Shown: in pieces, positions 3,001 to 25,560 of the stretch | How positions within the stretch are numbered: position 1 is the first letter of the stretch | Layout of the letters: each line of letters begins with the position of its first letter | The notes under the pieces: model-generated | Told to the model about the DNA's origin: nothing | What the model saw: the letters and a program-made list of their open reading frames with translations, nothing else | Databases searched by the model: none | Program-made: the position numbers and the translations under genes | DNA from: an uncultured Candidatus Saccharibacteria bacterium | GTDB taxonomy: Bacteria > Patescibacteriota > Minisyncoccia > Phycocordibacterales > UBA6899 | Length of the DNA stretch: 33,493 nt | Assembly: GCA_964409985.1 (NCBI GenBank) | Contig: CAYPEZ010000004.1 | Span: 1-33,493 of the forward strand | Reading direction: 5' to 3'

Positions 3001-4107
3001 TTACTCCGTCGCACGCATATACTTCACAATATAGGAGAATTTTGTGTCAGGGATTGGTTTAATCAGTATTGTTTTTGATTTCTCATCAAACAAAAGTTCA
3101 ATGCTGTCAGAGGAAAGAGCCCCTAAGACATCCATAATATATCGATAATTAAAACCCATTTCTACGCTTTCACCTTTTATTGTCGCATCAACACGTGTCA
3201 CAGACTCACCAACATCCTCTCTTTTTGCTTCAACCTCAAATAACTTTTCTTCTGGATACACCTTAAACAACACCTGTTGTTGTTTTCCTGAGAATAAGCC
3301 TGTAAGCCGCATAGTTCGCAATAAATCCGCTGAGAGTATGGTGACTTCGCTGGTTTTTTGTTTTGGAAAAATCTGTCGATAATCAGGAAAAGTTCCATCA
3401 ACAAGCCTTGAAGTAATATAAACTCCATCCCCTGTGATTGAGACTTGTGTTTTAGAAACAAGAATAGTGATCTCCTCTTTTCTCCCCTCAAGCAAAGTAA
3501 GGATTTGTGTAGCGTTTTTAAAAGGAATAAGAAATGGTTGAATGTTCGGGTCTGATTTTAATACAATGCGTTTTTCAGCTAAACGCGACATGTCCGTTGC
3601 CACAAAAACAAGTTCTTTTCCCTGAGAATAACAATACACACTATTAAATTCAGGTTTTACATCAGAGTGAGATGCGCTAAAAATTACACTACGAATCCCT
3701 TCAATAAATTTCACTGAATCAACTGTAAATGGTGTTCCTTTTTCAATAACCGGGATAGTGGGAAAATCTTCATATGAATACCCTTTCATCATTGTGACAG
3801 ATTTACTACTGGACACACTCATGTTTCCGTTTACAAGTTCAAGTGTGATGTTTTTTTCTTCAGGAAGATTCCCTAAATACCCACCAAGAAGTTCACCTGG
3901 AATAGCGACAACGCCTTCTGTGTGGATTTTTGCTGGAATAGTAAATTCAACACCAAGATCAAGGTTTGTTGCGCGAAGTTTAACTGTATTCTCTGTTGCA
4001 ACCAAAAGAACCATACGAAGAACTGGAAGGGATAGGAGTTTTCCTGTGACACGCTCGGCTGCAACAACAGCATCTTTGAGTTTTTGTTTTCCACATTCTA
4101 TTTTCAT
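3001..4107 (-). CDS. dnaN: DNA polymerase III beta sliding clamp
   Basis: The 368-aa product starts MKIECGKQKLKDAVVAAERVTGK..LPVLRMVLLVATENTVKLRATNLDLGVEF, a typical beta-clamp N-terminus. The length is right and the gene lies directly downstream of dnaA. Confidence 0.93.
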   Translation of the reverse strand: MKIECGKQKLKDAVVAAERVTGKLLSLPVLRMVLLVATENTVKLRATNLDLGVEFTIPAKIHTEGVVAIPGELLGGYLGNLPEEKNITLELVNGNMSVSSSKSVTMMKGYSYEDFPTIPVIEKGTPFTVDSVKFIEGIRSVIFSASHSDVKPEFNSVYCYSQGKELVFVATDMSRLAEKRIVLKSDPNIQPFLIPFKNATQILTLLEGRKEEITILVSKTQVSITGDGVYITSRLVDGTFPDYRQIFPKQKTSEVTILSADLLRTMRLTGLFSGKQQQVLFKVYPEEKLFEVEAKREDVGESVTRVDATIKGESVEMGFNYRYIMDVLGALSSDSIELLFDEKSKTILIKPIPDTKFSYIVKYMRATE

Positions 4108-4363
4108 ATCGTAGGTTTTTTCTAATACATACTAGTTAATGGTGTGGATATCTGGAAAAACCAATACACCCTTATTTATAACTATATCTTCTTTGTTTAA
4201 GAAAAGATAGTCTTGTGGTTATGGTGTGTATAAGTTGTAAAAACACACAAAAACCAAAAATAATGTGGAAAGACAGAGTATTTACAAAGATGTTATATAC
4301 AGGTTTTTGTATAGGTTATTCTTTATCTATCCACATAGTAATACACTAAGTTTTTCACAGTCT
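4108..4363. promoter_or_regulatory. AT-rich dnaA-dnaN intergenic region with DnaA-box-like 9-mers (candidate oriC module plus dnaN promoter)
   Basis: The boxes are TGTGGATAT at 4143-4151, TGTGGTTAT at 4214-4222, TGTGGAAAG at 4264-4272 and CTATCCACA at 4327-4335 in the opposite orientation. The consensus is TTATCCACA / TGTGGATAA. The surrounding sequence is AT-rich. Confidence 0.55.
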
Positions 4364-4397
4364 AAAAAACACACCGTATTTCGGTGTGTTTTTTTTT
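4364..4397 (-). terminator. rho-independent terminator of dnaA (bidirectional hairpin)
   Basis: The stem AACACACCG (4368-4376) pairs with CGGTGTGTT (4382-4390) around the loop TATTT. It is flanked by an A-run and a T-run and begins immediately after the dnaA TAA stop. Confidence 0.75.
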
Positions 4398-5754
4398 AGA
4401 ACAATGCTCGAATTTGTTCTATTTCCTGAGCGAGAATTGAATCAAGTTTAATATCACGTTTGATTTTTTCACAAGAGTGAATGACTGTTGTGTGGTCTCT
4501 CCCCCCGAGTTTTTGCCCAATTAAAGGAAATGAAATATTAAAGTCTTCACGGAGGAGAAACATGAGTACTTGTCTTGGTTTTACAACCTCCTTTCTTCGT
4601 GTTTTTTCAAAAATAAAGCGTTCCTCAATGTTGTAAAAATCGGTTACGGTCTTCACAATATCTTTTATTGATACAGGTTTTGTTGGTTTGGTGTTGTTTT
4701 TGATAAGTTGTTTAACTTCCGCTAGTGATAGTGGTTTGTTTTTGAGTTGAATTTGGCACACAACCAAATTAAAGGTTCCCTCAAGCTCACGAATACTTGA
4801 TTGAATGGTGAAAGCAATAAACTCGACAATTTCGTCTGGTACATGAACACTCAAGGACTCCATTTTATGCTTTAAAATAGCCATTCGAGACTCGTATTCT
4901 GGAGGAGTAATCTCAACAATCATCCCCGCCCCAAAACGTGATCGAAGACGGTCTTCAAGGTTGTTGATATACATGGGGTGGCGATCAGAAGAGAAGACAA
5001 TCTGTTTATTGTTGTCGTAAAGAGTGTTGAAGAGGTGGAAAAGCTCTTCCTGGGTCTTTTCTTTTCCTGAAAGGAATTGAATATCATCCATAATGAACAC
5101 GTCATACTTTCGATATTTTTCCTTGAAGTCGTGAACCTTATTGTTTTGAAGTGCGTTTACGTAGTCTGTCGCAAATTTTTCTGACGTAATGTATTGAATC
5201 CGCCGAGATGGGTTTTGTTTTTTAAGCTCGTTTCCGATTGATTGAATGAGGTGTGTTTTTCCATACCCTACCCCACCATAAATAAATAATGGATTGTACA
5301 TAATACCCGGCTTCTTGATGACTGCTTGTGCCGCTGCGTGAGCAAGCTCATTGAATGGCCCGATCACAAAAGTATCGAACGTATATCGAGGGTTCAGGTT
5401 GTCTTCCTTGCTGACATAGTATTCATGAAGAGGAAGCTCGTTGGTGTATGGAAGCGGAAAATCCTTTCGGATAATCATGGTATCGCGGTGAGGCTCGTCT
5501 TTTGCAACAATATACTCAATACCACGAATATCGTCAGCGAGGTTTCGGAGAGTTTTCAAAATTGTTGAGTGATACTTGTTTGCTAGCCACTCTTTTACAA
5601 ACTCATTTTGAACTCCAAGCTCAATTGTTCCTGCGTCAAAGCGTACAATACGTGTGTTTCGAAACCAAGTACTAAAGTTTGCCTTCGAGACTAATAGCTC
5701 GATCTCTGCGAGAGCTTTGTCCCAAATTTCTTTCGTATCAGTCACTGAACTCAT
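4396..5754 (-). CDS. dnaA: chromosomal replication initiator protein DnaA
   Basis: The 452-aa product has Walker A GGVGYGKTHL, Walker B FIMDDIQFL, and the C-terminal DNA-binding helix motif IGQKLGGRDHTTVIHSCEKI. Confidence 0.96.
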   Translation of the reverse strand: MSSVTDTKEIWDKALAEIELLVSKANFSTWFRNTRIVRFDAGTIELGVQNEFVKEWLANKYHSTILKTLRNLADDIRGIEYIVAKDEPHRDTMIIRKDFPLPYTNELPLHEYYVSKEDNLNPRYTFDTFVIGPFNELAHAAAQAVIKKPGIMYNPLFIYGGVGYGKTHLIQSIGNELKKQNPSRRIQYITSEKFATDYVNALQNNKVHDFKEKYRKYDVFIMDDIQFLSGKEKTQEELFHLFNTLYDNNKQIVFSSDRHPMYINNLEDRLRSRFGAGMIVEITPPEYESRMAILKHKMESLSVHVPDEIVEFIAFTIQSSIRELEGTFNLVVCQIQLKNKPLSLAEVKQLIKNNTKPTKPVSIKDIVKTVTDFYNIEERFIFEKTRRKEVVKPRQVLMFLLREDFNISFPLIGQKLGGRDHTTVIHSCEKIKRDIKLDSILAQEIEQIRALF

Positions 5755-5848: not shown

Positions 5849-5868
5849 TGTGGATATCTTGTGGAAAG
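5849..5868. promoter_or_regulatory. pair of DnaA-box-like 9-mers between dnaA and rpmH
   Basis: TGTGGATAT lies at 5849-5857 and TGTGGAAAG at 5860-5868. The 11-mer TGTGGATATCT is identical to the one at 4143-4153. Confidence 0.5.
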
Positions 5869-8020: not shown

Positions 8021-9160
8021 TTACTGTATATAGACAGAAAAGTGGTTTCCTGTAATGTGGTTTTTGGTGTCTAAATAGAGGTTGTTTGACGAAACCCCAG
8101 CATCTAAAAGCGCATTGTAGAGGGCAGCATCCTTGGTTTCAAAGACCAACCGTAAACCAGCACTAGCAGCTGCTGCGATGGTTGCTTGGACTGTGGCAGT
8201 GGTATATCCCCCAGAGGCGAATGCTATGTCTGCTGACCTCCCGACCATTTGATCGTTTGAACAGTGGCCAATTCCGGCTGGGAATCCACCTGTAACCGTA
8301 AAAGGTGATACTCCTTGGGTACCATATACCCTCGCTAGGCGGCTTCCAAGGTCTGTGTTGAGTTGTCCGGATCCTCCTGGGGGTTGTGGAATTGCTGAGC
8401 ACTGATCGCACACAGCTGGGGCGTAGACACAACACACAGAACCGGTGGGTTTTCCTCCTGCGCATGAAGTGTCTGGTCCGGTATCTCTTGTAAATCCGCG
8501 TTGTGGTGCACACAAAGGATCTGTTGAACACCCTGCGCTGTTTGATGATCCCCAGCGACAGGTCGCTCCTTGGGGGCATGTCTCTCCATTCCCTTGTGCT
8601 AAAGGTTTGATTTCAAAGCATGGGCCATAGGTCCCTCCCTGCGGCAGAGGATTTTGGGTTTTAAACTGTTCACAAGCATCCTTTGTGGCGAAGCGAGCCG
8701 AGTAGCGCGTTGTTGTGTTGCGATTGTCTGTGGTTGCGATAAGTGTGTACCACCCAGGCTCTGCGGGTTGTGCGGGGAGCGAAGGAACGATTGGTGGATC
8801 AAATACTGGCTGTGTGAGTGTTGGGTTAATTCCCTCCAGAAGAACATACCCGGAGAGTGCAAGAAGAAGCCCCAACACAACCATCACAAGACAGTGTTTT
8901 GCGTGAGAACGGTTTTCTGAGCTTGGTGCTGTAACTAGTTCAAACCCACAGACGACTAATCGTATAACCCCAATAATTCCTGCAATACCAATCAAAAACG
9001 TTATCATGCTTTTGAGGTAAGGAACCAATCCTTGATCAGCAACAACCCCCTGAATTGGTGCTGAAACATTTACAGGGATCCCTTGAGCAGCTGTGATGAG
9101 TGGAAAAAGCACAAAGATCAGTACTGCCCCAATGGTGTGTGTATGAAAAAACGTTCTCAT
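8021..9160 (-). CDS. VirB2/TrbC-like pilin module fused to a Cys-rich extracellular region and a C-terminal globular domain
   Basis: The product has a signal-like N-terminus (MRTFFHTHTIGAVLIFVLFPLITAAQG). Two hydrophobic helices follow (LKSMITFLIGIAGIIGVIRLVVCGF and CLVMVVLGLLLALSGYVLL), which is the T4SS pilin topology. After a Pro-rich linker come 12 Cys in about 150 aa, then a Cys-poor C-terminal domain. The ATG at 9160 overlaps the upstream stop as ATGA; the track ORF extends to 9175. Confidence 0.55.
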   Translation of the reverse strand: MRTFFHTHTIGAVLIFVLFPLITAAQGIPVNVSAPIQGVVADQGLVPYLKSMITFLIGIAGIIGVIRLVVCGFELVTAPSSENRSHAKHCLVMVVLGLLLALSGYVLLEGINPTLTQPVFDPPIVPSLPAQPAEPGWYTLIATTDNRNTTTRYSARFATKDACEQFKTQNPLPQGGTYGPCFEIKPLAQGNGETCPQGATCRWGSSNSAGCSTDPLCAPQRGFTRDTGPDTSCAGGKPTGSVCCVYAPAVCDQCSAIPQPPGGSGQLNTDLGSRLARVYGTQGVSPFTVTGGFPAGIGHCSNDQMVGRSADIAFASGGYTTATVQATIAAAASAGLRLVFETKDAALYNALLDAGVSSNNLYLDTKNHITGNHFSVYIQ

Positions 9161-10428
9161 AGCTTCACTCCCCACAAAGATCCATCTTTTTTGTTGATAA
9201 ACACAAGGTACGCACCGTCAGCGCTCACCATTGGTTGAGTGATATCAACATCAACACCGACAACATCGTGTGGAATCAAAAAAAGTGAGAATTGCCCTGA
9301 CTCCAGTGAATATTGCCAGAGGGTGTCTGAAAAACGCACAAGGCCTTGATACCACTCATCAGGATATACTGCGCGCGGAGGGGATTCTGGGACTCCACAG
9401 AACACCAATGTGTTTGATGGGGCCCATGCACACTTCTCTGGTAATGTTGCTGGAACAATGGTGTTTGGAATACCACTCCCTTTGGTGAGTATCCCAAGCC
9501 CCATGGTTGATTTATTCGTTTGACCTACAAGGACCGCAGAGCCATCTGGAGCGCTTTTTGTGGTAAGACCAGGAAGATCACCTAGTACTGGTGTTGTGAG
9601 CCCGTTTTGAGGGTCTAGTGAGAAAAAATACCCCCCCACGAGACCAGATGGTCTTGTGGTGAGCCCAATGTGTTCAGGCCCAAACCATTCTGGAATCCAT
9701 TCCGAAAACGGAGAAGTGAAGACGGGTGATGACACCGCGTTTCCATCAAGACGCATAATAGACAACTCGTTCCCAACTCGAAGCGTGTGGACAAATCCTT
9801 CTGTGGGGTGCGCTGAAATGAACGCAATATTTTCTGGAAGAAATGATTGCTCAAGGATCGCTGGGGCTTCATCCCCTGCTCCAGTTGATGGGTTTGGGAG
9901 GAGTTTCCCTAATACACTAACAATCCCACCTTTGTCCGTTGCTGTGCGTAAGACCACTGATTGGCCGCGCATGTCCCAGACGGCCTCTTGAACACGCGGA
10001 ATGGTGTTGTTTGCGAGAATTCTACCCGCACGAGACTCCACAGTGTATTCATAGACATCTCCGTCTTCACGAAGGACATATCTCACCGCAAGAGATCCAT
10101 TTGGGAGAGTTTTAAAGACTGCTCCAGACACGGGTCCGTCAGCGATTTTCCACATTCTCGAGAGACCCGCCTCTCCTCCAGGGATACCCACATCTCCAAG
10201 TTTGTCGTTGTTGTTCGTGTTTTGGTCAACATTCACGTAATCAGCAATCCCAAAGGGAAGAATTGAACGTACTTTTTCTCCTACATTTCCGCCGCCCCCA
10301 AACACCACAACATAGAAAATAATTGCGGCAAAAATCAGAAACAAGACTCCGACCCCAACAAAAAGCACGACCTTATTTTTTGGGGTTTCTTCAGTGTTCT
10401 CGGGTGTGGGAATGGATGTGGGTTCCAT
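9157..10428 (-). CDS. N-terminally membrane-anchored extracellular protein, beta-rich (possibly TolB/PD40-like propeller)
   Basis: The 423-aa product has a single TM (VVLFVGVGVLFLIFAAIIFYVVVF) followed by a G/P/T/S-rich beta-type sequence that ends SADGAYLVFINKKDGSLWGVKL, which is PD40-repeat-like. Function is unknown. Confidence 0.6.
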   Translation of the reverse strand: MEPTSIPTPENTEETPKNKVVLFVGVGVLFLIFAAIIFYVVVFGGGGNVGEKVRSILPFGIADYVNVDQNTNNNDKLGDVGIPGGEAGLSRMWKIADGPVSGAVFKTLPNGSLAVRYVLREDGDVYEYTVESRAGRILANNTIPRVQEAVWDMRGQSVVLRTATDKGGIVSVLGKLLPNPSTGAGDEAPAILEQSFLPENIAFISAHPTEGFVHTLRVGNELSIMRLDGNAVSSPVFTSPFSEWIPEWFGPEHIGLTTRPSGLVGGYFFSLDPQNGLTTPVLGDLPGLTTKSAPDGSAVLVGQTNKSTMGLGILTKGSGIPNTIVPATLPEKCAWAPSNTLVFCGVPESPPRAVYPDEWYQGLVRFSDTLWQYSLESGQFSLFLIPHDVVGVDVDITQPMVSADGAYLVFINKKDGSLWGVKL

Positions 10429-10448
10429 GGTTGTGCGCGTCTCGTTTG

Positions 10449-11687
10449 TTATTGGTATGTAATGGTAATGCTCGACTTTGCGCTTTGAAGGACACGTTTC
10501 GGGTTATCTAGCGAGGCGTCAATTCTCGATGACCCACCTGTTGTGGGTTTGTGGAGTGTGACTGATTGATTAAGGCTCGGGATACTCTTTCCATTTTGAG
10601 ACCACCTCAAAGGAGCTGAACCGTCCTCAAGCTCCTCTTTTGAAGCAAAATATGGCTCCCCTTTAATCGTGGTTTCTTCGTTTGAGAGCATAAATGATTT
10701 TCCTAATGCTTCTTCGTATCGAAAACCAAAAAGTGGAGATCCTGCATACAGAAGAAGCTTTGGTTCAGTGATGGCAATGGTGACTTCGCGTTCGGTCTGT
10801 GCTCCTGAGTTCGGGTCACGAACAAGAAGCTTTAGTCGCTCCTCTTGCAACCCTCCCCCTGTTTCAAATGTAGCAGAGCGCTTCCCAAACCCTGATAACG
10901 ACTCTATGCTTCGATAATTCCGCTTCCACTCGTACAGAAGTTGATCAGGGGAGATGTTTTTTCCCTTCGATACAAGAGTTGGAAATGGAATCAGTTTCAC
11001 AGTGCTTTTATAGCTTGGAAGTGGCTTCCCTTTATAAAAAGGAGGAATGTATGTGTTTGCTTCCCATAAAATCGCAACATCACCAGGATTGACCACAAGT
11101 TCTTTTGAAAAAAATTCTCCAAGCTTTCGTGACATGACCGAAACAACGATTCTCGTTTCTTCCCCTATTCCTCGCATGGGTATGGTGATTGATGTCCCCC
11201 CAATTTGATCTTGGACAACAGCCCCGTTTACTGTCCATGTGATGCGGTCCTCAGCGAGATTTGTTGAGTAATTCGTGACACGAATTGTTGCTTCCTCGTA
11301 TGCTCGGGGAATTTCTGGAGTGACAGTGAGTGTGGTGAGGTTTTCTGTGACCTTATGAGCCTCCTGGGAAACATCAAATGTATATACTTGTCCATTAATA
11401 CGAAAGATAAGATTTTTTCCATCAAATGTTGGTTGAATACGAGAGGCATCTCCTATCCCAGCACGAATCAACTGATCCATTTGTTGGATAGAAGACTGAA
11501 CTACTTGCGGAGTATACTGTTGGCTAGTCACCGCTTGTTGCATTTGTTGGGATGTGACCGGAGGGAGAGATAGTGGTTGCCCAGGCAAACGGGTTTGTGC
11601 CCCTCCGCACAATGGAATAAGCAGAAAAGAAAGCAATAGTATCCAGGTATACAAACGACCTTTCTCTTGACGAGGCATATACTTCAT
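10449..11687 (-). CDS. secreted protein of unknown function with internal beta-sandwich-like repeats
   Basis: The 412-aa product has a signal peptide (LYTWILLLSFLLIPLCGGAQT) and a Q-rich linker. About three modules of roughly 100 aa follow, each ending in an alternating beta pattern (IVVSVMS, VTIAITEP, SSITITYQ). Confidence 0.6.
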   Translation of the reverse strand: MKYMPRQEKGRLYTWILLLSFLLIPLCGGAQTRLPGQPLSLPPVTSQQMQQAVTSQQYTPQVVQSSIQQMDQLIRAGIGDASRIQPTFDGKNLIFRINGQVYTFDVSQEAHKVTENLTTLTVTPEIPRAYEEATIRVTNYSTNLAEDRITWTVNGAVVQDQIGGTSITIPMRGIGEETRIVVSVMSRKLGEFFSKELVVNPGDVAILWEANTYIPPFYKGKPLPSYKSTVKLIPFPTLVSKGKNISPDQLLYEWKRNYRSIESLSGFGKRSATFETGGGLQEERLKLLVRDPNSGAQTEREVTIAITEPKLLLYAGSPLFGFRYEEALGKSFMLSNEETTIKGEPYFASKEELEDGSAPLRWSQNGKSIPSLNQSVTLHKPTTGGSSRIDASLDNPKRVLQSAKSSITITYQ

Positions 11688-11715
11688 AAGTATAACACCT
11701 ACCTTAGGTCATTTT

Positions 11716-13518
11716 TTAGTTTTTTCCCCCGTCAGCAAGGTCCATTTTTCCTTCTTTGATTGCCAGGAGTTGTGATGGGTCTGAGGTAATGATTTGCTCT
11801 TCTGTGTAAGAGGCGATGACTTTGATGGCGACATGCTTTAATCCCGCAAAAAAGAGTCCTTCTCCTACCCCAGACTCAAGCAAAAGATACTTTTCTTCAT
11901 CTGTGAGGTGAAAGGCGTTTTGGACCACATCGATTGTTGTCGGTGATTGTTTGAGGAGTATCTGAATTGAGGAGTTCGTTAAGATTGGAAGTCCGTACGG
12001 AGATTTCAAGAAATCGTTCACATCCTGGGTAATTGTCGCAACACCCAAGTAATACTTGCGGCCACGTTTTGCGAGACCGAAGAGGAAAGATGCTGTATCT
12101 TCTGATTTCATCATCCACCACGCCTCATCTACAACAAGAAGACGCTTTCGCAACTCTTTGCGAATTGCGGTCCAAATGTAGTGGGTAATGATGTACACTG
12201 CGACGGGCTTTAGCTCGTCTTCCATGTCACGGACAGAAAATACCGTAAATCGTTTTGTGATATCAACATTTGTTGGTTTGTTGAGAAAACCAGACCACGT
12301 CCCCTGGGTATATTTTTCTAGTCGTTGTAGGAGCGATGCTGTGCCATCCATACCACGAAGCACGAGTTCAAAGTCAGAAAGAAGCGGAGGTTCAATGTTG
12401 GTAAAATCTGATTCTCCAGTGATATCTTTGAGAGCATATGTTTCCGCAATAGCACGATCGACAATACCATCTTCTTCTGGAGAAAGTCCTCCAAGCATGA
12501 TGCGAAAGAGTCCTACAAGATAAATGATATTCGAACGAAGCACGTCTCCAGGAGACTCTTCTTCTCGGGGAAGAGGAAGATCAAAAGGGTTGATGTGGTG
12601 GTCGCTGGTGAGAGAAATATTGAAATACCGTCCACCAGTCGCGTCACAAAGGTATTCATATTCCCTTTCTGGGTCAATCACAATGACATCTGCATCAAAC
12701 ATGAGTGTTCGTAGAATCTCGAGCTTGGTCAGAAATGATTTTCCAGACCCCGACACAGCAAAAGTGACTGAGTTGTAGTTTGGCATCGAAAAACGATCAA
12801 AGAGTACAAGCGAAGAATTGTGACGATTGACACCCCAGAGAATTCCACGATCACTTGTAAGATCAAATGAGACAAAGGGGAAAATAGATGATAACGGCTC
12901 AGAATTGAGTTTGTAATGCACTTCAATTTCGTCAGTCCCCAGTGGGAGCACGCTCCGATATCCTTGTTCTTGCTGGAATATTGCGGGTTTGAGATAAACG
13001 AGCTTAGCGTCGAGTATGGACTTCAGTTCTGTCTCGACACGATCAAGTTCTGCCTTATCTCTGCCATAAATAGTGATGTAAATGCCGACATCAAAGAGCT
13101 TCTCTGTCGCTTGTTGAAGTTTATCGCGGAGATCTTCAAGGTCTTGATATGCGACATCAAGAACAGGATCTCGTACGAATCCTTTCTTTTCCCTGTCGTT
13201 AATCTGGCTTTGAACCTCCGCTACTTTTTTTTGGAATCCTCGAAGTGCTTGCTCGGTGTTCACCGGATGGATGATGATTGATACATCGTATACCTTGTCG
13301 AGATTAATCACAGGAGTGAACCAATCCTCTGAGAGGAACCGTGGGAAGGAAATCACAAAGAGTGTTCGAAGTACCTTGTCCCCAACATAGAGTTCTTTTG
13401 GTGTCACCTTTACTGCGGCAGGAGCTAGGACATCTTTGAGATTGAGATTTGTTGCCGAAAGAATATCGGGTGGAAGTAATACACTAGTATTAATAACATC
13501 GTATTGTTTATCCGCCAT
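11716..13518 (-). CDS. virB4: VirB4/TrbE-family type IV secretion ATPase (middle plus ATPase domains)
   Basis: The 600-aa product has Walker A AVSGSGKS (nt 12736-12759) and Walker B LLVVDEAWWMM with the VirB4-typical DEAW (nt about 12118-12129). Its N-terminal part (ELYVGDKVLRTLFVISFPRFLSEDWFTPV) matches the VirB4 middle-domain pattern. Confidence 0.88.
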   Translation of the reverse strand: MADKQYDVINTSVLLPPDILSATNLNLKDVLAPAAVKVTPKELYVGDKVLRTLFVISFPRFLSEDWFTPVINLDKVYDVSIIIHPVNTEQALRGFQKKVAEVQSQINDREKKGFVRDPVLDVAYQDLEDLRDKLQQATEKLFDVGIYITIYGRDKAELDRVETELKSILDAKLVYLKPAIFQQEQGYRSVLPLGTDEIEVHYKLNSEPLSSIFPFVSFDLTSDRGILWGVNRHNSSLVLFDRFSMPNYNSVTFAVSGSGKSFLTKLEILRTLMFDADVIVIDPEREYEYLCDATGGRYFNISLTSDHHINPFDLPLPREEESPGDVLRSNIIYLVGLFRIMLGGLSPEEDGIVDRAIAETYALKDITGESDFTNIEPPLLSDFELVLRGMDGTASLLQRLEKYTQGTWSGFLNKPTNVDITKRFTVFSVRDMEDELKPVAVYIITHYIWTAIRKELRKRLLVVDEAWWMMKSEDTASFLFGLAKRGRKYYLGVATITQDVNDFLKSPYGLPILTNSSIQILLKQSPTTIDVVQNAFHLTDEEKYLLLESGVGEGLFFAGLKHVAIKVIASYTEEQIITSDPSQLLAIKEGKMDLADGGKN

Positions 13519-13521
13519 ATA

Positions 13522-14157
13522 TTATTTTGCGATTGCAGCGTCCAGATCCCCTGGATTGAATTTGCGGTAAAACAGCTCAGTAATTTCCTCGGTAGCCAGA
13601 CGATGTGTACGGAGTCCGCATCGTGCGAGGCCTTGCTCAACTGCTGATACGCGTTGTTCGAGCTGAATACGATTTTCTTCAAAAGATTCGTCGCTGACTT
13701 TTTTTGAACTTTTTCCTGAACCAAAGAGGCCCGCAAGTGGTCCGACATTACTCTTGGCAACTGCTGCTCGTGGTGCATATGGGACCACAACAATAAAGGT
13801 TTTAGACATAATGTTTACCTGGTCTGTGAATCCCTTGATGAATTGAATGTATTCCATGACCTGAACCTTCATAATGTCGAGAAGCTGAGCCTTCTGGCGC
13901 TCTTCGAGGAGTAGGAGGTAAGGACGAATGTCAAAGCGTTTTGATTGAATAAAAATCTGTAGAGAATATTCAATTGAATTTAAAAAATCTTGGAATTGCG
14001 TAATAATCGCCGTTTGTTCCTCGCGACTCTTGAGTCCAAAATTAATCGATGAGGTCAGGAGAAGCATGCGATACGATCCATCCTTGAGAATAAGGACGCC
14101 ATTGCGAACATCATTAATAGGAACAAATTCCTGTGTGGGTTTTCCAGGAGCTGCCAT
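13522..14157 (-). CDS. stand-alone protein resembling the N-terminal domain of Gram-positive-type VirB4 ATPases
   Basis: The 211-aa product contains QEFVPINDVRNGVLILKDGSYRMLLLTSSINFGLKSREEQTAIITQFQDFLNSIEYSLQIFIQ. This follows the N-terminal pattern of long (about 800 aa) VirB4/TcpF/Orf16-type ATPases: ip..di.dGi....dg.y.k.l.v..iNf.l.s..eq..i...f..fln. It is in the same frame as the next ORF, separated only by TAA-TAT. Confidence 0.6.
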   Translation of the reverse strand: MAAPGKPTQEFVPINDVRNGVLILKDGSYRMLLLTSSINFGLKSREEQTAIITQFQDFLNSIEYSLQIFIQSKRFDIRPYLLLLEERQKAQLLDIMKVQVMEYIQFIKGFTDQVNIMSKTFIVVVPYAPRAAVAKSNVGPLAGLFGSGKSSKKVSDESFEENRIQLEQRVSAVEQGLARCGLRTHRLATEEITELFYRKFNPGDLDAAIAK

Positions 14158-14175
14158 AGCATCATTATAGGGGTT

Positions 14176-14646
14176 TTATCTTGATTCAGCCTGGGGATTA
14201 CGTTGTCCTCCCGGGTCAAGCTCGGTTTTGTCGTGAGTGTCGATTTGCCATTCAAGCACCGAAAGGCTATTTCCGGTTGCATGTGTTGTTTGTGCCGGTC
14301 CACCCACTTTTTTTGTCGGTTGTAATGCAGCAATTTCTATCTCAGGAGAAGTCTTTTTCTCAATACGCCGCCATACATACAGTCGTGGTGTGAGTGCATA
14401 TCTAAATCCTGCTTCGAGGAGATCAATAAAAGGGCGATTGTTGATTTTTACAAATGCAAGAGACACCCCGAGCCCCCCAAAGAGCGCCGCAGGAAAAATC
14501 GCAATAAATGTTGGAAGCCATGCAAAGGAAAGATAGACTGCGCCACCGCCTCCAGCAAGGTATAAGAACTGCTTTATTGAAAGCGGGCCTACAATTTTAT
14601 CTTCAACATCAATAAACTGAGGAACTTGATAGCGCATAGAAAGCAA
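14176..14646 (-). CDS. PrgI-family (VirB3-like) small membrane protein
   Basis: The N-terminus YQVPQFIDVEDKIVGPLSIKQFLYLAGGG, followed by two TM helices, is the PrgI/VirB3-like signature. The gene sits immediately upstream of the VirB4 ORFs. An alternative start is the ATG at 14637. Confidence 0.75.
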   Translation of the reverse strand: MLSMRYQVPQFIDVEDKIVGPLSIKQFLYLAGGGGAVYLSFAWLPTFIAIFPAALFGGLGVSLAFVKINNRPFIDLLEAGFRYALTPRLYVWRRIEKKTSPEIEIAALQPTKKVGGPAQTTHATGNSLSVLEWQIDTHDKTELDPGGQRNPQAESR

Positions 14647-14716
14647 AACGGATTACTCTGTATTTATACCACAAACCACACGCTCCATGTCGCCCACTCA
14701 ATGCGACACTGTGTGT

Positions 14717-15292
14717 TTATGCTGGTAATTCTCGGTAAGGATCGGTGGTTTGGGTCTGTGCCGATGGCGAGATTTGCGCCTCTGTGTGGTTGTAGGTTGG
14801 AACACCGACCTGAGGTGCCGCAGGGGCACGGAAGGCACTTCCAAGCTTTTGGTTAAGCATGGATGTCTCAGGTTGAACCTGGGGTTGTGGAGAGCTTTGC
14901 TCTCCGGGTGCTTTATACCCTACGGGGGCAGGTGTCTCTTGTTGTTGTTGCTGCTGCTGAGCAGCTTCTCCTAGTCCATGCACTTTCTTGAGGGACTCTC
15001 GTACGGTGTGAAGGATGTCTCGATTGACTTCTTGTGCGATAAAAGCAGCTTTGTCGCGAGGGATACCAAGCTTGTCCGCAAGCACTGGTACGTACTGCTT
15101 TGGTTCAACGAGTCCCATCATAAGGAACCCTGATTGGATTGAAAGTTCCTCACGTTGGTGGGCATCAAGTCCATATCGCGCTTGTATCTGGTTATACACA
15201 TCCATTGATGTGGGAGAAAAGATCGCATCCTGGAGATCCTCAGGGAGGGCGAGGTACATATCTTGGATATCTTGTGGGGAAAGTGTTGCCAT
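14717..15292 (-). CDS. hypothetical protein with a helical N-domain and a low-complexity Q/P-rich tail
   Basis: This 191-aa ORF has no TM segment. Residues 1-110 are helical-looking (LPEDLQDAIFSPTSMDVYNQIQARYGLD...), then comes a Q7 tract and a P/Q/A-rich tail. It starts 4 nt after the upstream gene. Confidence 0.6.
   Translation of the reverse strand: MATLSPQDIQDMYLALPEDLQDAIFSPTSMDVYNQIQARYGLDAHQREELSIQSGFLMMGLVEPKQYVPVLADKLGIPRDKAAFIAQEVNRDILHTVRESLKKVHGLGEAAQQQQQQQETPAPVGYKAPGEQSSPQPQVQPETSMLNQKLGSAFRAPAAPQVGVPTYNHTEAQISPSAQTQTTDPYRELPA
14939..14959 (-). repeat. CAA/CAG trinucleotide run encoding Q7
   Basis: On the plus strand, (TTG)4(CTG)3 at 14939-14959 encodes QQQQQQQ on the minus strand. 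Confidence 0.9.
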
Positions 15293-15296
15293 GAGT

Positions 15297-17846
15297 TTAT
15301 GTGTTGACGTTCTTGAGGTTACGAATTTCCTCAGCTAAAGTATTTCTTCGTTGAATGTCAGTATAGCTGGAGGAGCGTTGGAGATCAGCATACTCCTTCT
15401 CAAGATCAGCAATCTTCTGAGTTCTTTCTTTCTGTTCAGTTTCCGTTTGTGCTTTTTTTTGTTTTTCCGTTTGTCGATTTTGCCTTAAGTTTGCGGCAGA
15501 AGCTTTCGCACCTTCCTCAAGTTTCCTAAGCGCATCAGGAGAAACCATTGATCCAAGATCTTCTTTAAGCCGTTCATAATCCCTCTCCCTTGCTTCAAGT
15601 CGCTCACGGAGTTTAGCAAGTTCTGCACGGTCTCCTTTAGGATCCTGTTCGTTTTCACGGATGAGTTCTTCAAGCTCATTAACGGCGACAACAGACTTCG
15701 AGAAGCGTGAGCTTTTTGAATCATATAGACGTGTCCGCACAACATCGCTTTCCGCAACCTGATACCCAAAGTGATTCTTCTGTCCTTCAGGGCTTGCAAG
15801 ATATTCTTTTCCTTTATTATTCTCTGACTTTTGGATATTCTCATTGAGATTCTTCAAGATGTCTTGGTTTTGATATTTTCCATCTAGCCACTGCTTGTGG
15901 ATTTCACTCAGCACGTTTCTGTCAACAGTCTCAGCGAAGCCCTGTGAGGTAAGAATTTTTTCGCTGAAGCCAGCAATCGCACTTGGTCTGACTTGCTGTG
16001 ATGTTTTCTGAATGGTTGTCTTTGACTCTTGGATCGCTTTTTCAATAGTCTCAATGTCTGCTTTGAAGGTCTGTGTCATCGTCTCGTCCTCATTTCGAAT
16101 GGCTTCAGCAAGCTGCTTCCTCTTTTCGTCGAGTGTTGCCATTTGTTTGTCGAGATTACCAATCTCTTTTTCGAGGGACTTTTCTGTTTCTTTCTCGCGG
16201 ACCTTTCTGTTGATTTCTGTTCGAGCTGTTTGAGCGTCTTTGGATTTCAAATTGTCATAATTACTCTTCCCATCCCATGCCGTTCCCATATTATTCTTGA
16301 GGTAGTTTGCTTGCGCCGCAGGGTTGTCAGGAAAGAGTTCTTTTGCCCGCGCCACGTATTGCTCTTCCTTCGCTTTGGTGATCCCTCCTTTGTTTAAGAG
16401 TGTGTGTGAGAGAGAGTCTTCGATACCCCCCGACTTTTTAAATCCTCCCTCGCCACGAGTGAGGATACCAGGAACCTCTGCGTCTAGTTTCGAAATCGCT
16501 TTTGCGCCGTATTTACTTTGTGCAATATCCCATGATCCCTTTGCACCCTTCTCATATGCGCTAAGACGCATACGTGCAAAAGCTCCCCGCACGCCGCTTT
16601 CTTGGGCAGCGTCCTTCAACTTTTGATTGTCAGCACGCCATGCAGCAGTACGTCCGAGAACTTGTCGCCCTGCGAGTCCAATAGCCCCCGTACCGACACC
16701 AATTGCCGCACCGGTGACAATCTTTGTCCCCCAGTCGGCAAGCTTTGCCCCACTAGAGCTTGCCATTTCAAAGGCGAGTTCTGTTCCAGCGTACAAGAGC
16801 CCTATCACAAGGACAAAGTCCATAATGCTGGTATTGGGAGAGAGAAAGTTTGGAGATGCGATGATTTGGAAGATGAGATAAATAATAATCATGTAAAAAG
16901 GAGCCAAGAGGGTGTAGCTCGTCAGTTTTTTCCACCACTCATCAATAAAGTGTGAGGCTCTCCCGCTTGGAAATGCGTATGAGAGAAACGCAAGAGGAGA
17001 AAACATAATAAGGAACGCAAAGGCGATCATTCGGGAGATAAAATAGAAGGCCCCTTTGATGAAGATCGCTCCCGCCGCAATGTACATAATCCCTGTCATA
17101 AAAAAGAGCATCATGACCTGTTTGTTCCCAAGCTCTGCGCCCGTAGGGGTTGTTGCCAGACGGTTGATGTCCATGGCGTCCATGAATCGGTCAGCAATAG
17201 AACAGGGAGCCTGGGCACCGGGTTTTGAACACTGCGCTCCCCCAGTACGAGGTGTTGGGCTTTCAAGAATTTTATTGTAGAAGCCTATGGCAACAATATT
17301 TCCCGCATCGATAATCACCTTGGTGAAAAACGCACTAAAGTTAATGAGCAGAGCGACAACAATGACGCGTACGAGCATTTGCTTGGTGCTGTGATTCCCA
17401 AGTTGAAGGATGGTCTGGATGGCGATATAGAGAATGATGAAGATAAAGAAGAGGTTCGCAAAATCCCGCATGACTTCCCACCCGATTTGGATACCCCCAA
17501 ACCGCTGATCAAGAGGCTCGAAGGAATAGGTAATTGCTGTCGAGAGGCACCATGATCCAAATGCAAGGAACAGGCTCGCAACAAAGCGAAAAAGCTGCCC
17601 GATGTATTTGGGAATTGCCCACAGAAGGTTGTTCACCCAAGCAGCTGCTCCACTAAAGATTCCACTAAACCAAGAACTTTGCTGAGTATCATCTTGGATA
17701 TCGGCCCCAACGAATCCATTCGAGACCAAATCAACTGGTGATGACTGCGCATGTGCTGTTGGGACACCAACGGACGCAAAAAAACTCCCACTCACAACAA
17801 AGATGAGGGTCCAGATGAGAAAAAGTTTTTTTATCGTGGAGATCAT
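15297..17846 (-). CDS. VirB6/TrbL-like polytopic membrane protein with a roughly 400-aa charged coiled-coil C-terminal tail
   Basis: The 849-aa product has a signal peptide (FVVSGSFFASVGVPTAHAQ). At least 6 hydrophobic helices lie between about aa 70 and 400 (for example FANLFFIFIILYIAIQTIL, MLFFMTGIMYIAAGAIFI, LLAPFYMIIIYLIFQII). The K/E/R/Q-rich tail is heptad-like (EKETEKSLEKEIGNLDKQMATLDEKRKQLAEAIRNEDE...). Confidence 0.65.
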   Translation of the reverse strand: MISTIKKLFLIWTLIFVVSGSFFASVGVPTAHAQSSPVDLVSNGFVGADIQDDTQQSSWFSGIFSGAAAWVNNLLWAIPKYIGQLFRFVASLFLAFGSWCLSTAITYSFEPLDQRFGGIQIGWEVMRDFANLFFIFIILYIAIQTILQLGNHSTKQMLVRVIVVALLINFSAFFTKVIIDAGNIVAIGFYNKILESPTPRTGGAQCSKPGAQAPCSIADRFMDAMDINRLATTPTGAELGNKQVMMLFFMTGIMYIAAGAIFIKGAFYFISRMIAFAFLIMFSPLAFLSYAFPSGRASHFIDEWWKKLTSYTLLAPFYMIIIYLIFQIIASPNFLSPNTSIMDFVLVIGLLYAGTELAFEMASSSGAKLADWGTKIVTGAAIGVGTGAIGLAGRQVLGRTAAWRADNQKLKDAAQESGVRGAFARMRLSAYEKGAKGSWDIAQSKYGAKAISKLDAEVPGILTRGEGGFKKSGGIEDSLSHTLLNKGGITKAKEEQYVARAKELFPDNPAAQANYLKNNMGTAWDGKSNYDNLKSKDAQTARTEINRKVREKETEKSLEKEIGNLDKQMATLDEKRKQLAEAIRNEDETMTQTFKADIETIEKAIQESKTTIQKTSQQVRPSAIAGFSEKILTSQGFAETVDRNVLSEIHKQWLDGKYQNQDILKNLNENIQKSENNKGKEYLASPEGQKNHFGYQVAESDVVRTRLYDSKSSRFSKSVVAVNELEELIRENEQDPKGDRAELAKLRERLEARERDYERLKEDLGSMVSPDALRKLEEGAKASAANLRQNRQTEKQKKAQTETEQKERTQKIADLEKEYADLQRSSSYTDIQRRNTLAEEIRNLKNVNT

Positions 17847-17860
17847 TGAGGGTTATGCTA

Positions 17861-18757
17861 TCACAAGCCGTTGTCTAGAAGTTCATTGGTTAGTCGCATC
17901 ACAATACCGCTAAAAATCGCTTCCGCCAGTTCGTCCTGACCTGACAATTCTTCAAGAGAATGCCCAAAGACTTTTGACACAGCGTTAGATACATTTGAGG
18001 AAGAGATTTTGATTTCGTATCGTGCACATCCCCCACTTGGAGTTCGTTGTACACAGTATTTATTTGGCAGCATGCCTCCATACGACAAGAATTTTTCTTG
18101 CTCTAGTGCTTGTTGCTGCATACGTTGTTGTTGCGCAGCAACGACATCTGGAGCGAGAATGGGGTCGTCCGATGATCGTGCAGACATTTTAAGAATTGGA
18201 CCAAGTCCTCCTTCGGTCACAAAGCCTCCTGGTTGAAAATAATTTTCAATGACCCCACTTGTCACCGCTTCCTGAAGCTTACATTCGGTAATGCGTCTGA
18301 GTCCGGCGTCTGTTTGGTCGATGTCTTCTGCTGAGTCAATTCCACCGAGCGCTACTTTGATGCGTACGTCTGCTTGAAATGGAGTACACACGTCATTGAT
18401 GATGTTGTTGAGTCGGTCGGTGAATACATTGCTTTCATTCATGACGGTATTCAACGCAAAATCTCTTGGGTTTTGGATGAATGATGGCTGGCCATCAAAT
18501 CCGTTGCGCGCCCAATTGAGAATGCTTTGTTTCAGACGGTCTTGGATGCCGATCGAGATGGCTTTTTGGGCTGGATCAAGAACGTATTCCTTGATCCATT
18601 GTTGGTTCCCAAAAAACGTTTGCTGGACACTGTTGACGGCCGAGATGGTGTTCTGCACGAGGTTTGCCGCATCCACCCAAGCTGATGCTCGAAAAGGAGA
18701 AACAAGAAAGATTCCTGTCAAAACACATACCGAAATCTGACGTAAAGAATAATGCAT
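17861..18757 (-). CDS. secreted protein of unknown function
   Basis: The 298-aa product has a signal peptide (ISVCVLTGIFLVSPFRASA) and 4 Cys, and starts 14 nt upstream of the VirB6-like gene. I recognise no domain. Confidence 0.6.
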   Translation of the reverse strand: MHYSLRQISVCVLTGIFLVSPFRASAWVDAANLVQNTISAVNSVQQTFFGNQQWIKEYVLDPAQKAISIGIQDRLKQSILNWARNGFDGQPSFIQNPRDFALNTVMNESNVFTDRLNNIINDVCTPFQADVRIKVALGGIDSAEDIDQTDAGLRRITECKLQEAVTSGVIENYFQPGGFVTEGGLGPILKMSARSSDDPILAPDVVAAQQQRMQQQALEQEKFLSYGGMLPNKYCVQRTPSGGCARYEIKISSSNVSNAVSKVFGHSLEELSGQDELAEAIFSGIVMRLTNELLDNGL

Positions 18758-18793
18758 AAGTAATGTATCAAACGACCAATAATAAACCCCGAA

Positions 18794-19789
18794 TTATGGG
18801 GAACGACCTTCTAGTAATTTTACGGCAGCATCAGCATCAGTCCAAGGAATCGTCTGAAGCATAGGAGACGAAAAGAGTGTTTCTATGGTTTTTCCCATGG
18901 TCTCGGTTCTGGTCTGGAATTCTTGTAACAACAGAAGGTCTTCAATGGGGTTCACGACAGAGGTATTCCCAACACGATCCAAGATAAACACATTATCTGC
19001 AAGCGTGTTGATGAGAGTGAGATGGTGTTTTGCAAGCTCCGCCGGAGGTGTCAGGGGGAGAAGTTTTTGTATAAGAGCTTTTTCACGACTTGTCTCTCGT
19101 TGTGCCAAGGGAAGTCTTTGATTCACCTCAGGAGAAGTCCAAAGAAGTAAGAGCTCCTCTTTCGATAGTTGTTCGGTATCTGTAAGTGCGATTGTTGCGA
19201 GACCATTAAAATAGGCGCGGTACACCTCGGGTGTATCTACTGGACTCACACGGATATCATTGACGGAATACTGTGTGGTGATCTGGGGCATTCGCTTTCG
19301 TGCTTTCAGAACAAGCGAGTCAATGAGGAGGCCAATATTTTCATCACTGAGTTCGCCGCTCTGTTCAAGTGCTGCTGCTCCGGAAAAGAGGTCTCGACCA
19401 ATGATGTCTGTCGTCGTCAGCGTTGGGTCGTCATCATAATATGGCGATCGTGTGCTTGTTGCGGTCGCGGCATATTCTTTTCTATCATTCGGGCCCTTTG
19501 TTCTTGGGTCTCGTCCAATCCGCACTTCTTCTCCATCGGGAGTTCCATCTCCGTCGCTATCTGCGTTATTTGGGTCCGTTTTCCAAAGTTCTTCTTGCCA
19601 TGTCTCAAGCCCATCTGAATCAAGGTCTTGGTGTATGCCTGCTGGAACAACATCAGCAACCGAAACATCGTTCCGAAGATAGGTGTTCGGGGTATATGTG
19701 GAAAAAAATGCGGCGGCAACAATACACAACGCGATAAAGATACTTATCGCGACACGAGGACTCTGAAATATGCCTCTTTCATCTTCCAT
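18794..19789 (-). CDS. membrane-anchored protein with thrombospondin-type-3-like Ca-binding repeats
   Basis: The 331-aa product has an N-terminal TM (VAISIFIALCIVAAAFF). It then carries DLDSDGLETWQEELWKTDPNNADSDGDGTPDGEEVRIGRDP, the DxDxDG...TDPNNxDTDGDG repeat style. It is the first gene of the operon. Confidence 0.65.
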   Translation of the reverse strand: MEDERGIFQSPRVAISIFIALCIVAAAFFSTYTPNTYLRNDVSVADVVPAGIHQDLDSDGLETWQEELWKTDPNNADSDGDGTPDGEEVRIGRDPRTKGPNDRKEYAATATSTRSPYYDDDPTLTTTDIIGRDLFSGAAALEQSGELSDENIGLLIDSLVLKARKRMPQITTQYSVNDIRVSPVDTPEVYRAYFNGLATIALTDTEQLSKEELLLLWTSPEVNQRLPLAQRETSREKALIQKLLPLTPPAELAKHHLTLINTLADNVFILDRVGNTSVVNPIEDLLLLQEFQTRTETMGKTIETLFSSPMLQTIPWTDADAAVKLLEGRSP

Positions 19790-24663: not shown

Positions 24664-25560
24664 GTGTTTAGTCGTGTCACAACTTCTCAAAACACCCCAC
24701 TTCTTTCTGCTGTGGGAGGACCTGATACAGAACAGTCGCTCACGTACGAGCTCCCTATTGTTGAAGGAGAGGCTCTTTCCGCAGATGCAGGTCCTATTGG
24801 AACAATAGTTAATGTGGAGGAGGGTAATGCTAAGGGAATGATTAGTGCCTACGTGGTTCGAGAGGGCGACTCTCTTTCTCGTATAGCGCAAATGTTTGAT
24901 GTGTCCGTCAATACGATTCTTTGGGCAAACGGACTCACTCGCAATACTCCTCTTAAGGTTGGATCGGAACTTGTGATCCTCCCCGTCTCTGGGGTGAAAC
25001 ATTCTGTCAAAAAGGGAGACACACTTTCCTCTATTGCGAAGGCATATAAAGCTGATGCTGAGGATATTGCCCATTTCAATGGTATAGAAGACGACGCTCT
25101 TCCCGAAATCGGCGAAGTGATCATTGTTCCTAATGGACAGATTCAAGAGAAAAAATCAACAGTTTCTGCAGGTACACGTGTTACCTCACGGCTGCGTGGG
25201 GCGAACGGCCCAGCAATTGATGGGTATTATATTCGTCCAGTCGATGGTCGAAAGACGCAGGGCCTTCACGGCTATAATGGGATCGACTTCGGTGCCTCCA
25301 TTGGCACCCCAGTCTTTGCCTCTGCTGGCGGGCAAGTCATTGTTGCTCGTTCGTATGGGTACAACGGTGGATACGGGAAATATGTCGTCATCAGCCATGA
25401 TAACGGGACACAAACCCTATATGGGCACTTGAGTGCTGTCGGTGTTTCTGTCGGCCAATCCGTCGGTCAAGGCCAATATATTGGTGATGTTGGTAACACT
25501 GGACGCTCGACTGGCCCCCACCTTCATTTTGAGGTCCGTGGAGCACAGAATCCATTTTAG
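24664..25560 (+). CDS. LysM-domain M23-family peptidoglycan metalloendopeptidase
   Basis: There are two LysM-like repeats (YVVREGDSLSRIAQMFDVSVNTILWANGL and HSVKKGDTLSSIAKAYKADAEDIAHFNGI). The M23 motifs are HGYNGIDF (HxxxD) and TGRSTGPHLHFEV (HxH). The first canonical start is the GTG at 24664, but the frame is open upstream from 24439 (see findings). Confidence 0.85.
   Translation: MFSRVTTSQNTPLLSAVGGPDTEQSLTYELPIVEGEALSADAGPIGTIVNVEEGNAKGMISAYVVREGDSLSRIAQMFDVSVNTILWANGLTRNTPLKVGSELVILPVSGVKHSVKKGDTLSSIAKAYKADAEDIAHFNGIEDDALPEIGEVIIVPNGQIQEKKSTVSAGTRVTSRLRGANGPAIDGYYIRPVDGRKTQGLHGYNGIDFGASIGTPVFASAGGQVIVARSYGYNGGYGKYVVISHDNGTQTLYGHLSAVGVSVGQSVGQGQYIGDVGNTGRSTGPHLHFEVRGAQNPF

Follow-up and report, generated by a model that had tools for sequence, protein, structure and literature searches.

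A probable non-conjugative type IV secretion system encoded beside the predicted replication origin of a Patescibacteria chromosome

The subject of this report is a cluster of ten genes on the minus strand of a stretch of Patescibacteria DNA of 33,493 nt (referred to throughout as the window), which occupies positions 8021-19789 and encodes proteins resembling the membrane machinery of type IV secretion systems (T4SSs). An earlier note, made from the sequence alone, had described these genes as co-directional and separated by gaps of -4 to 70 nt, and we reproduced both the coordinates and the gaps; from g10 to g1 the latter are 36, 14, 4, 70, 18, 3, 28, 20 and -4 nt when g1 is taken to start at the ATG at 9160. 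The ten genes are as follows.

18794-19789, minus strand: g10, first gene of the operon
17861-18757, minus strand: g9
15297-17846, minus strand: g8, extended VirB6/TrbL-like protein
14717-15292, minus strand: g7, cytoplasmic protein without a known family
14176-14646, minus strand: g6, small membrane protein of the PrgI/VirB3 family
13522-14157, minus strand: g5, TrsD-like protein, a stand-alone VirB4 N-terminal piece
11716-13518, minus strand: g4, body of a VirB4 ATPase of the monoderm CD1110 type
10449-11687, minus strand: g3, exported or anchored rod of three immunoglobulin (Ig)-like domains
9157-10428, minus strand: g2, single-pass membrane protein with a predicted extracellular beta-propeller
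8021-9160, minus strand: g1, start ATG at 9160 as in the Joint Genome Institute (JGI) gene call, with GTG 9175 as an alternative

All ten open reading frames (ORFs) are intact, and together they encode a T4SS core (a split VirB4, PrgI/VirB3, an extended VirB6 and a VirB2-like pilin) along with five lineage-specific envelope proteins. The GC content across the cluster is 0.43-0.50 and does not depart from that of the remaining window. For comparison, one genome per GTDB species was scanned for VirB4, which gave more than 585 relatives; the best 80 of these (L001-L080) were all metagenome-assembled genomes of Patescibacteria/Paceibacteria, with VirB4 proteins 72-84% identical to that of the window and Ca. 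Lloydbacteria closest. The presence of the other genes at these 80 loci was scored by tblastn with all window proteins at a threshold of 1e-5.

The ATPase is the best defined component of the cluster. The earlier note had placed a Walker A motif at 12736-12759 and named DEAW as the Walker B motif; translation of the former gives AVSGSGKS and the latter lies at 12118-12129 in g4. The g4 protein scored 360 bits against NCBIfam NF045971, the CD1110 family of VirB4-like conjugal transfer ATPases (cut-off 325), over model positions 180-733, and it also matched P-loop_TraG and AAA_10 and, weakly (E=9e-8), the archaeal DNA-import ATPase CedB. The JGI annotation already names it a VirB4 component. Judged from alignments, the N-terminus of VirB4 is encoded separately by g5 and the ATPase body by g4: g5 aligned weakly with positions 2-119 of the CD1110 model in NCBIfam, matched TrsD weakly in the same database (E=1e-3) and carries a precomputed match to the TraC-like Pfam family PF26593. 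Since g5 is an ORF of its own in 80/80 related loci, the split is not an artefact of assembly.

Of the other two translocon components, g6 was recognised from its own sequence and g8 through its family. The call of a PrgI/VirB3-like protein was supported for g6, which scored 29.3 bits against Pfam PF12666 (PrgI; gathering score 27), contains a transmembrane (TM) hairpin and is present in 78/80 loci. For g8, called VirB6/TrbL-like before, there was no Pfam match with the single protein, but homologues carry PF04610/PF19590 (TrbL/VirB6, TrbL_3). When 48 members of the family were scanned singly, 13 matched TrbL/VirB6, and the family profile found R388 TrwI (VirB6) as its best match in the PDB (E=1e-4) over the membrane region. 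The protein has multiple TM segments (polytopic part approximately residues 1-370) followed by a long, charged coiled-coil C-terminal half, in agreement with the 'extended VirB6' type of PMC12857230. We therefore treat g8 as a probable VirB6 at the level of the family.

The VirB2-like pilin call concerns g1, in which two modules can be distinguished.

8804-9043, minus strand: N-terminal module, VirB2-like T4SS pilin domain, with a signal peptide and two TM helices
8024-8377, minus strand: C-terminal module, an unnamed domain of about 118 amino acids with invariant H/D/E/H

The g1 protein scored 19.8 bits against PF18895 (T4SS_pilin), under the gathering score of 26.6, and weakly matched the Mbov_0395 pilin-like model. 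PF18895 was matched by 23/26 g1 homologues at the locus, one of the 26 also matching TrbC/VirB2 (as did 6/42 members of the C-terminal-domain family), and a hidden Markov model (HMM) built from the locus homologues gave 88 bits on the g1 ORF, its sole match in the window. The pilin domain is the only widely conserved part of g1. On these profiles g1 would be a VirB2-like pilin at family level, with pilus formation as a prediction. The profile searches thus upheld all four core calls, VirB4 and PrgI above their cut-offs and VirB6 and the pilin through their families.

Searching 1.8 billion proteins yielded 47 representatives of the C-terminal domain of g1, and in 32/42 it was joined to a T4SS_pilin domain. 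Its invariant residues, H299, D311, E341 and H373, are kept in the window copy. A profile of 26 sequences matched the N-domain of Sonic hedgehog (Shh) in the PDB (E=4e-4) across HxxGxxxD, whereas a two-sequence profile found no match there. The Shh N-terminal domain has the LAS/M15-type zinc-peptidase fold, in which the HxxGxxxD motif and a distal His are presumed to bind zinc. The family consensus CHxxGTCVD aligns with LHYEGRAVD of Shh; the window copy reads DQMVGRSAD and so does not satisfy the HxxGxxxD motif, as Gln replaces His (this is also the case in one subfamily), and the activity of the domain is therefore uncertain. The domain appears to be related to the hedgehog N-domain and LAS (M15-type) zinc-peptidase fold. 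That it is merely a divergent M15_4 domain was considered and rejected, as BLASTP against the M15_4 domain of L067 gave no similarity.

The pilin-like proteins that relatives encode at this locus end in other domains, namely NlpC/P60 (L060, L073), CHAP (L028), Peptidase_M15_4 (L067) or SLT, and in most relatives the gene lies between g3 and g2 rather than after g2 as in the window. A conservative reading is that the hydrolase-like module of g1 would take the place of VirB1/PrgK, acting as a wall hydrolase that is anchored in the membrane by its N-terminus. A second candidate for a VirB1-type helper is a LysM-LysM-M23 peptidase encoded at 24664-25560 on the plus strand; its gene keeps this position beside pcrA-rsmA in several relatives, and in L056 and L011 it directly adjoins that for PrgI. 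The statement that the window holds no VirB1 is thus right in the literal sense, as no SLT domain was found in it, and probably wrong as regards function, given the hedgehog/LAS-like domain of g1 and this peptidase.

The position of the cluster between core genes, close to rpmH-rnpA-yidC-jag, was borne out by synteny across 80 species. To its left lie jag, yidC, rnpA, rpmH, dnaA, dnaN and a gene for a class A penicillin-binding protein (PBP), and to its right genes for a membrane spermidine-synthase-like protein, rsmA/ksgA, pcrA, the LysM-M23 peptidase, ComM/YifB, polynucleotide phosphorylase, a NYN protein and a Xer-type recombinase. One order recurred among the relatives: pcrA-rsmA-g10-(g9)-g8-(g7)-g6-g5-g4-g3-(g1)-g2-jag-yidC-dnaA-dnaN-PBP1a. 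Thirty loci retained both flanks, and in these g8, g6, g5, g4, g3 and g2 were present in 30/30, g10 and g9 each in 20/30, g7 in 11/30 and g1 in 10/30, the last two being short and fast-evolving. The span from rsmA to yidC was 10.7-17.7 kb in all 30, and the cluster occupied the same chromosomal position in every flanked locus. VirB4 was more conserved than DnaA (encoded at 4396-5754) in 50/50 loci with both (median identity 74% against 59%), a contrast that is inflated because the loci were chosen by VirB4 similarity. Such constraint on VirB4 is unusually strong for a secretion ATPase. We conclude from the shared order and the conservation that this is a vertically inherited, strongly constrained core locus, and neither an integrative and conjugative element (ICE) nor a decaying remnant. 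What is incremental here is the invariant Paceibacteria core of six genes, which consists of VirB6, PrgI, TrsD, VirB4, the Ig rod and the propeller.

The replication origin is probably close at hand. Four DnaA-box-like 9-mers (with at most one mismatch to TTATCCACA) lie within 250 bp at 4087-4335, in the low-GC spacer between dnaN and dnaA, and a further one is found upstream of dnaA at 5849-5857. The cluster of boxes in the spacer indicates that oriC probably lies about 4 kb from the T4SS genes.

Mobility genes were sought in the window and in 10 kb on each side of it, approximately 53 kb of a 95.5-kb JGI metagenome contig. The absence of a coupling protein, relaxase and VirB11 from the window, as claimed before, held in the profile scans and extended across these flanks: no relaxase family was matched by any ORF of cluster or flanks, no VirD4/TcpA-type coupling protein (T4CP) was found, and VirB11 and replication or partition genes were likewise not found. 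Beyond the left end lie tyrS, ruvC, yebC, ruvB and a gene for a PilB-type ATPase, and beyond the right end genes for a phosphatase, the CCA-adding enzyme, YraN and CheW-CheY-CheA. The CheW-CheY-CheA genes (L081 17724-20893) and that for the PilB-type T2SSE ATPase (L084 18144-19826), on opposite sides within the added 10 kb, look like a chemosensory/type IV pilus module in a reduced genome of the candidate phyla radiation. Repeats resembling flanking att sites were confined to chance-level matches of 16-35 nt, and the window has no tRNA gene and hence no integration site of the tRNA type. There was also said to be no adjacent integrase, and the only recombinase seen is of the Xer tyrosine type, at 32477-33406 on the plus strand, 12.7 kb from the cluster. 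The xer-NYN-pnp-comM order of the window is found again in the relative L056; as the gene is syntenic with core genes there, we regard it as a housekeeping gene and not as an ICE integrase. Profile matches, inspection of the flanks and synteny thus agree that this is not a typical conjugative element, and membership of the conjugative T4SSs or ICEs was rejected on the lack of relaxase, T4CP and att repeats in the approximately 53 kb and on the identical site in all flanked loci.

Where the machinery comes from is indicated by homology and by gene order. Among plasmid-borne VirB4 proteins, even the nearest share no more than 29-35% identity with that of the window, and all of these belong to Bacillota or Actinomycetota. 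Judged by similarity, the VirB4 of the cluster appears to fall within the monoderm lineage of mating-pair formation class FATA (MPF-FATA), where it groups with Patescibacteria VirB4 proteins. On Clostridium botulinum plasmid pCDC3875 the order is VirD4(CD1115)-x-VirB6(CD1112)-PrgI-x-VirB4(CD1110)-x-SLT hydrolase, with which g8-g7-g6-g5/g4-...-g1 of the window is colinear, apart from the loss of VirD4, the division of VirB4 over two ORFs and the gain of other envelope genes. With the monoderm MPF-FATA systems (the CTn2/CD1110 subclass, for example pCDC3875; pCF10 Prg/Pcf; pGO1 Trs) the cluster has in common a VirB4 of the CD1110 family, PrgI, VirB6/TrbL and the lack of an outer-membrane core, and with pGO1 Trs also the TrsD-like protein. 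It differs from them in that VirD4, a relaxase, oriT, a PrgB-type adhesin and a recognisable VirB8-like protein are missing, VirB4 is made as two ORFs, a VirB2-like pilin domain that is absent from the Gram-positive systems is present, and the genes are fixed in the chromosome at the origin rather than carried on a mobile element.

The earlier note had considered the ComB DNA-uptake system of Helicobacter pylori to be the closest in logic, and by homology this did not hold. ComB is likewise chromosomal, has VirB2/3/4/6-type parts and lacks a coupling protein and relaxase; however, it is a system of diderms with ComB7/8/9/10 (VirB7-10) at its centre, all of which the cluster lacks, and its VirB4 belongs to another lineage. 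No match to a VirB7/VirB9/VirB10 core or to VirB8 was found among the ten cluster proteins, and membership of the ComB class was rejected because that core is missing; the modelled folds are a propeller for g2 and an Ig array for g3. In both homology and gene order, the closest relative is the monoderm MPF-FATA conjugation machinery and not ComB. The transfer genes of Mycoplasma ICEs were also compared: g4 and g5 matched the Mbov_0397 VirB4 model with 253 and 28 bits and g1 weakly resembled the pilin-like Mbov_0395, all scores against the Mycoplasma ICE models being below their cut-offs. The wall-less or monoderm context and the small pilin-like membrane protein are alike in the two, whereas the Mycoplasma elements are mobile, with a DDE recombinase and genes for DNA processing.

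Systems of this kind have been described in Patescibacteria. In a survey of 3,035 Patescibacteria genomes, Quiñonero-Coronel et al. (2025; PMC12102498) found VirB4 in 2,417, these proteins forming a monophyletic clade nested in MPF-FATA, with TrsD, PrgI/VirB3, VirB6 and VirB2-like pilins widespread near virB4. The same survey found relaxases in only 103/3,035 genomes and VirD4-type (T4CP) homologues in 2,918/3,035, mostly far from virB4, and it placed the virB4 of Paceibacteria and Microgenomatia near dnaA, dnaN, rnpA, ksgA and rpmH. In the saccharibacterium Southlakia (S. epibionticum), transposon sequencing showed a T4SS and pilin array to be essential, without a recognisable coupling protein or relaxase (Wang et al., 2023; PMC10633639), while comEC was required for transformation and dispensable for growth (see also PMC12857230); the T4CP homologue of Southlakia is non-essential (PMC12102498). 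Patescibacteria T4SSs are also covered in a 2025 review of T4SS nomenclature (PMC12857230).

The cluster shares with these Patescibacteria-clade systems (PMC12102498; S. epibionticum SEML1_0006-0019, PMC10633639) the core of VirB4, TrsD-like protein, PrgI/VirB3, VirB6 and VirB2-like pilin, the lack of a relaxase or T4CP nearby, and the site by dnaA, dnaN, rnpA, rpmH and ksgA that was reported for Paceibacteria. It differs in having a single pilin-like gene with a hedgehog/LAS-like C-terminus instead of an array, and in its accessory set of g2, g3, g7, g9 and g10, which had not been individually described; essentiality is known for the Saccharibacteria version only. We conclude that the cluster is very probably a chromosomal, non-conjugative Patescibacteria-clade T4SS, located beside the replication origin of a member of the Paceibacteria, a group of ultra-small bacteria that depend on hosts. 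The remark that T4SS-like clusters have been noted in Patescibacteria was correct but fell short of present knowledge: descriptions of the system appeared in 2023-2025, with gene set, missing relaxase and origin-proximal site all in print. The incremental details here are the g2 propeller, the g3 Ig rod, the calcium-binding g10 and the pilin-hydrolase fusions.

The accessory proteins were characterised from structural models and profiles. The AlphaFold2 model of g2 (mean confidence, pLDDT, 88) has a TM helix at residues 17-42 followed by an all-beta region, for which Foldseek returned WD40/TolB propellers; matches to TolB profiles were weak, and some homologues carry an additional peptidoglycan-binding domain (PG_binding_1). 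The model indicates that g2 is a membrane-anchored, extracellular beta-propeller of the TolB/WD40 type. For g3, present in 75/80 loci, the model (pLDDT 86) begins with an anchor or signal, from which a flexible linker leads to a tandem array of three Ig-like beta-sandwich domains, with Foldseek matches to Ig arrays of Hoc, SiiE, GhpA and Dscam type; a profile also matched Hoc.

The first gene of the operon, g10, encodes a protein with one TM segment (residues 13-31), DxDxDG calcium-binding (TSP3-like) repeats and then a helical domain. It matched the TSP3_bac/MtsD/CglD repeat models, and its family profile matched the calcium-binding region of biofilm-associated protein (3e-8) and lanmodulin, so that g10 is predicted to be a calcium-binding membrane protein. 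The g9 protein is secreted, contains Cys and has a signal-like N-terminus. Its match to TrbJ is faint (E=0.011-0.059, over residues 8-48 only), one relative matches DUF4141, and a profile search of the PDB gave only coiled-coil or low-complexity noise. At 298 amino acids it is shorter than its relatives, which are typically 520-600, and lacks their C-terminal coiled-coil half, with no leftover ORF behind g9. Lastly, g7 has no TM segment and consists of a conserved N-terminal domain of about 100 amino acids (conserved in 26/80 loci) and a P/Q-rich tail; it had no match in Pfam, NCBIfam or the PDB, where the profile search again returned coiled-coil or low-complexity noise, and relatives of g7 were thus detected only within the lineage.

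A working model can be assembled from these parts. The machinery very probably descends from a monoderm MPF-FATA conjugation apparatus that has lost its DNA-processing module. The split VirB4 (g5 and g4), PrgI/VirB3 (g6) and the extended VirB6 (g8) supply the translocon in the cytoplasmic membrane, and g1 a VirB2-like membrane or pilin module tied to a domain resembling cell-wall hydrolases, while g2, g3, g9 and g10 are exported or anchored envelope proteins that co-evolve with the core. VirB4 may provide the energy with which VirB3, VirB6 and the pilin-like protein are assembled into a short pilus or a conduit across the wall; a hydrolase module of the g1 type may open the peptidoglycan in a VirB1/PrgK role; and g2, g3, g9 and g10 may form an extracellular scaffold and host-contact part in place of VirB8 and an adhesin.

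Far less certain than the identity of the cluster is what the machine does. We suggest that it acts at the interface between epibiont and host, where it would serve for contact and translocation and be required by the epibiont in order to grow. Assembly of a pilus or adhesin together with export of protein toward the host has about even prospects of being correct, and we favour it over import of host DNA or other macromolecules, which seems rather less probable, because the essentiality of the T4SS in Southlakia is uncoupled from ComEC and because the conserved accessory proteins look like surface or adhesion modules. A bolder proposal, which we put forward tentatively and consider rather unlikely as it stands, is that in Paceibacteria the VirB2-like 'pilin' is a membrane or pilus carrier for swappable wall-active C-termini, with g2, g3, g9 and g10 as an undescribed extracellular scaffold that replaces VirB8, the VirB7-10 core and the adhesin, and that the device breaches or grips the wall of the host and not that of the cell itself.

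The most serious competitor is a ComB-like or Ced-like import machine, that is, a T4SS run 'backwards', by which a cell unable to make nucleotides would take in DNA from its host or surroundings, or other macromolecules, an idea already raised in PMC11665869 and in the conclusions of PMC12102498. The lack of a T4CP or relaxase near the cluster, the weak resemblance of its VirB4 to CedB and the ComM/YifB gene 6 kb away would all suit it; however, ComM is a general core gene, which among the relatives was seen in L056 and L046 alone, in both of them beside the M23 gene as it is here, and the VirB7/9/10 homologues that define ComB are missing. ComB passes DNA to ComEC, and as Southlakia can do without comEC but not without its T4SS, the essential role cannot lie in a ComB-type step that supplies ComEC. 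On balance we regard import as an unlikely, though by no means negligible, account. Conjugation that still functions by means of a coupling protein and relaxase encoded elsewhere in the chromosome is very improbable. It would draw on the VirD4-type homologues that most surveyed genomes carry at a distance from virB4 and on the fact that our inspection covered about 53 kb of the contig, but it sits poorly with the rarity of relaxases in the same survey, with the dispensable T4CP homologue and essential T4SS of Southlakia (PMC12102498), and with a cluster held at one chromosomal site across the class. Least probable of all, to the point that we give it hardly any weight, is a decayed ICE, a remnant stripped of its mobility genes and on the way to loss. 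The MPF-FATA ancestry of VirB4, the colinearity with a clostridial conjugative module and a tyrosine recombinase 12.7 kb away could be read as its traces, yet the ten ORFs are intact, VirB4 is well conserved over 80 species and more so than DnaA, the position is constant in all flanked loci, att-like repeats are lacking, and the recombinase stands among core genes in the same order as in a relative.

Several points weigh against our interpretation of the cluster as a non-conjugative T4SS of the Patescibacteria clade. To our knowledge, there are no experimental studies of a T4SS from Paceibacteria. Among the cluster proteins, none was recognisably VirB8-like, a VirB5-like reading of g9 is faint, resting on matches with E>0.01, and g1 alone falls short of the Pfam pilin threshold. 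The Gln in place of the motif His may render the C-terminal domain of g1 catalytically inactive. A T4CP may be encoded elsewhere in the genome (PMC12102498), as its absence was established for the approximately 53 kb, and the selection of loci by VirB4 similarity flatters the comparison with DnaA.

Much of bacterial diversity belongs to the Patescibacteria, whose way of living at the expense of hosts is still being worked out, and in the single species in which this was tested the T4SS proved essential. Rather than a new kind of system, the window shows in clean form the arrangement already published for Paceibacteria. What it adds is a parts list, comprising the invariant six-gene core, which includes two uncharacterised envelope proteins with confident fold models, and a recurrent pilin-hydrolase fusion, which could guide AlphaFold-Multimer modelling, cryo-electron tomography or genetics once a Paceibacterium can be manipulated.

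Some further features of the window were recorded. Promoter-like sites were as numerous as expected from shuffled sequence, whereas terminator-like sites exceeded that expectation (23 against 11.5), none of them interrupting the operon. An Rfam scan gave no RNA family at gathering score, and the sole match in a PHROGs scan, of VirB4 to a mis-named 'terminase' family, was uninformative. The ORF of the class A PBP at 84-2723 on the plus strand starts approximately 44 codons upstream of the JGI call (879 against 835 amino acids), and its first ATG is probably not the true start. At 25572-26057 on the minus strand, a small protein with two TM segments and no assigned family is encoded, the homologues of which sit between virB4 and g3 in L011 and L014; this may be a displaced eleventh gene associated with the T4SS.

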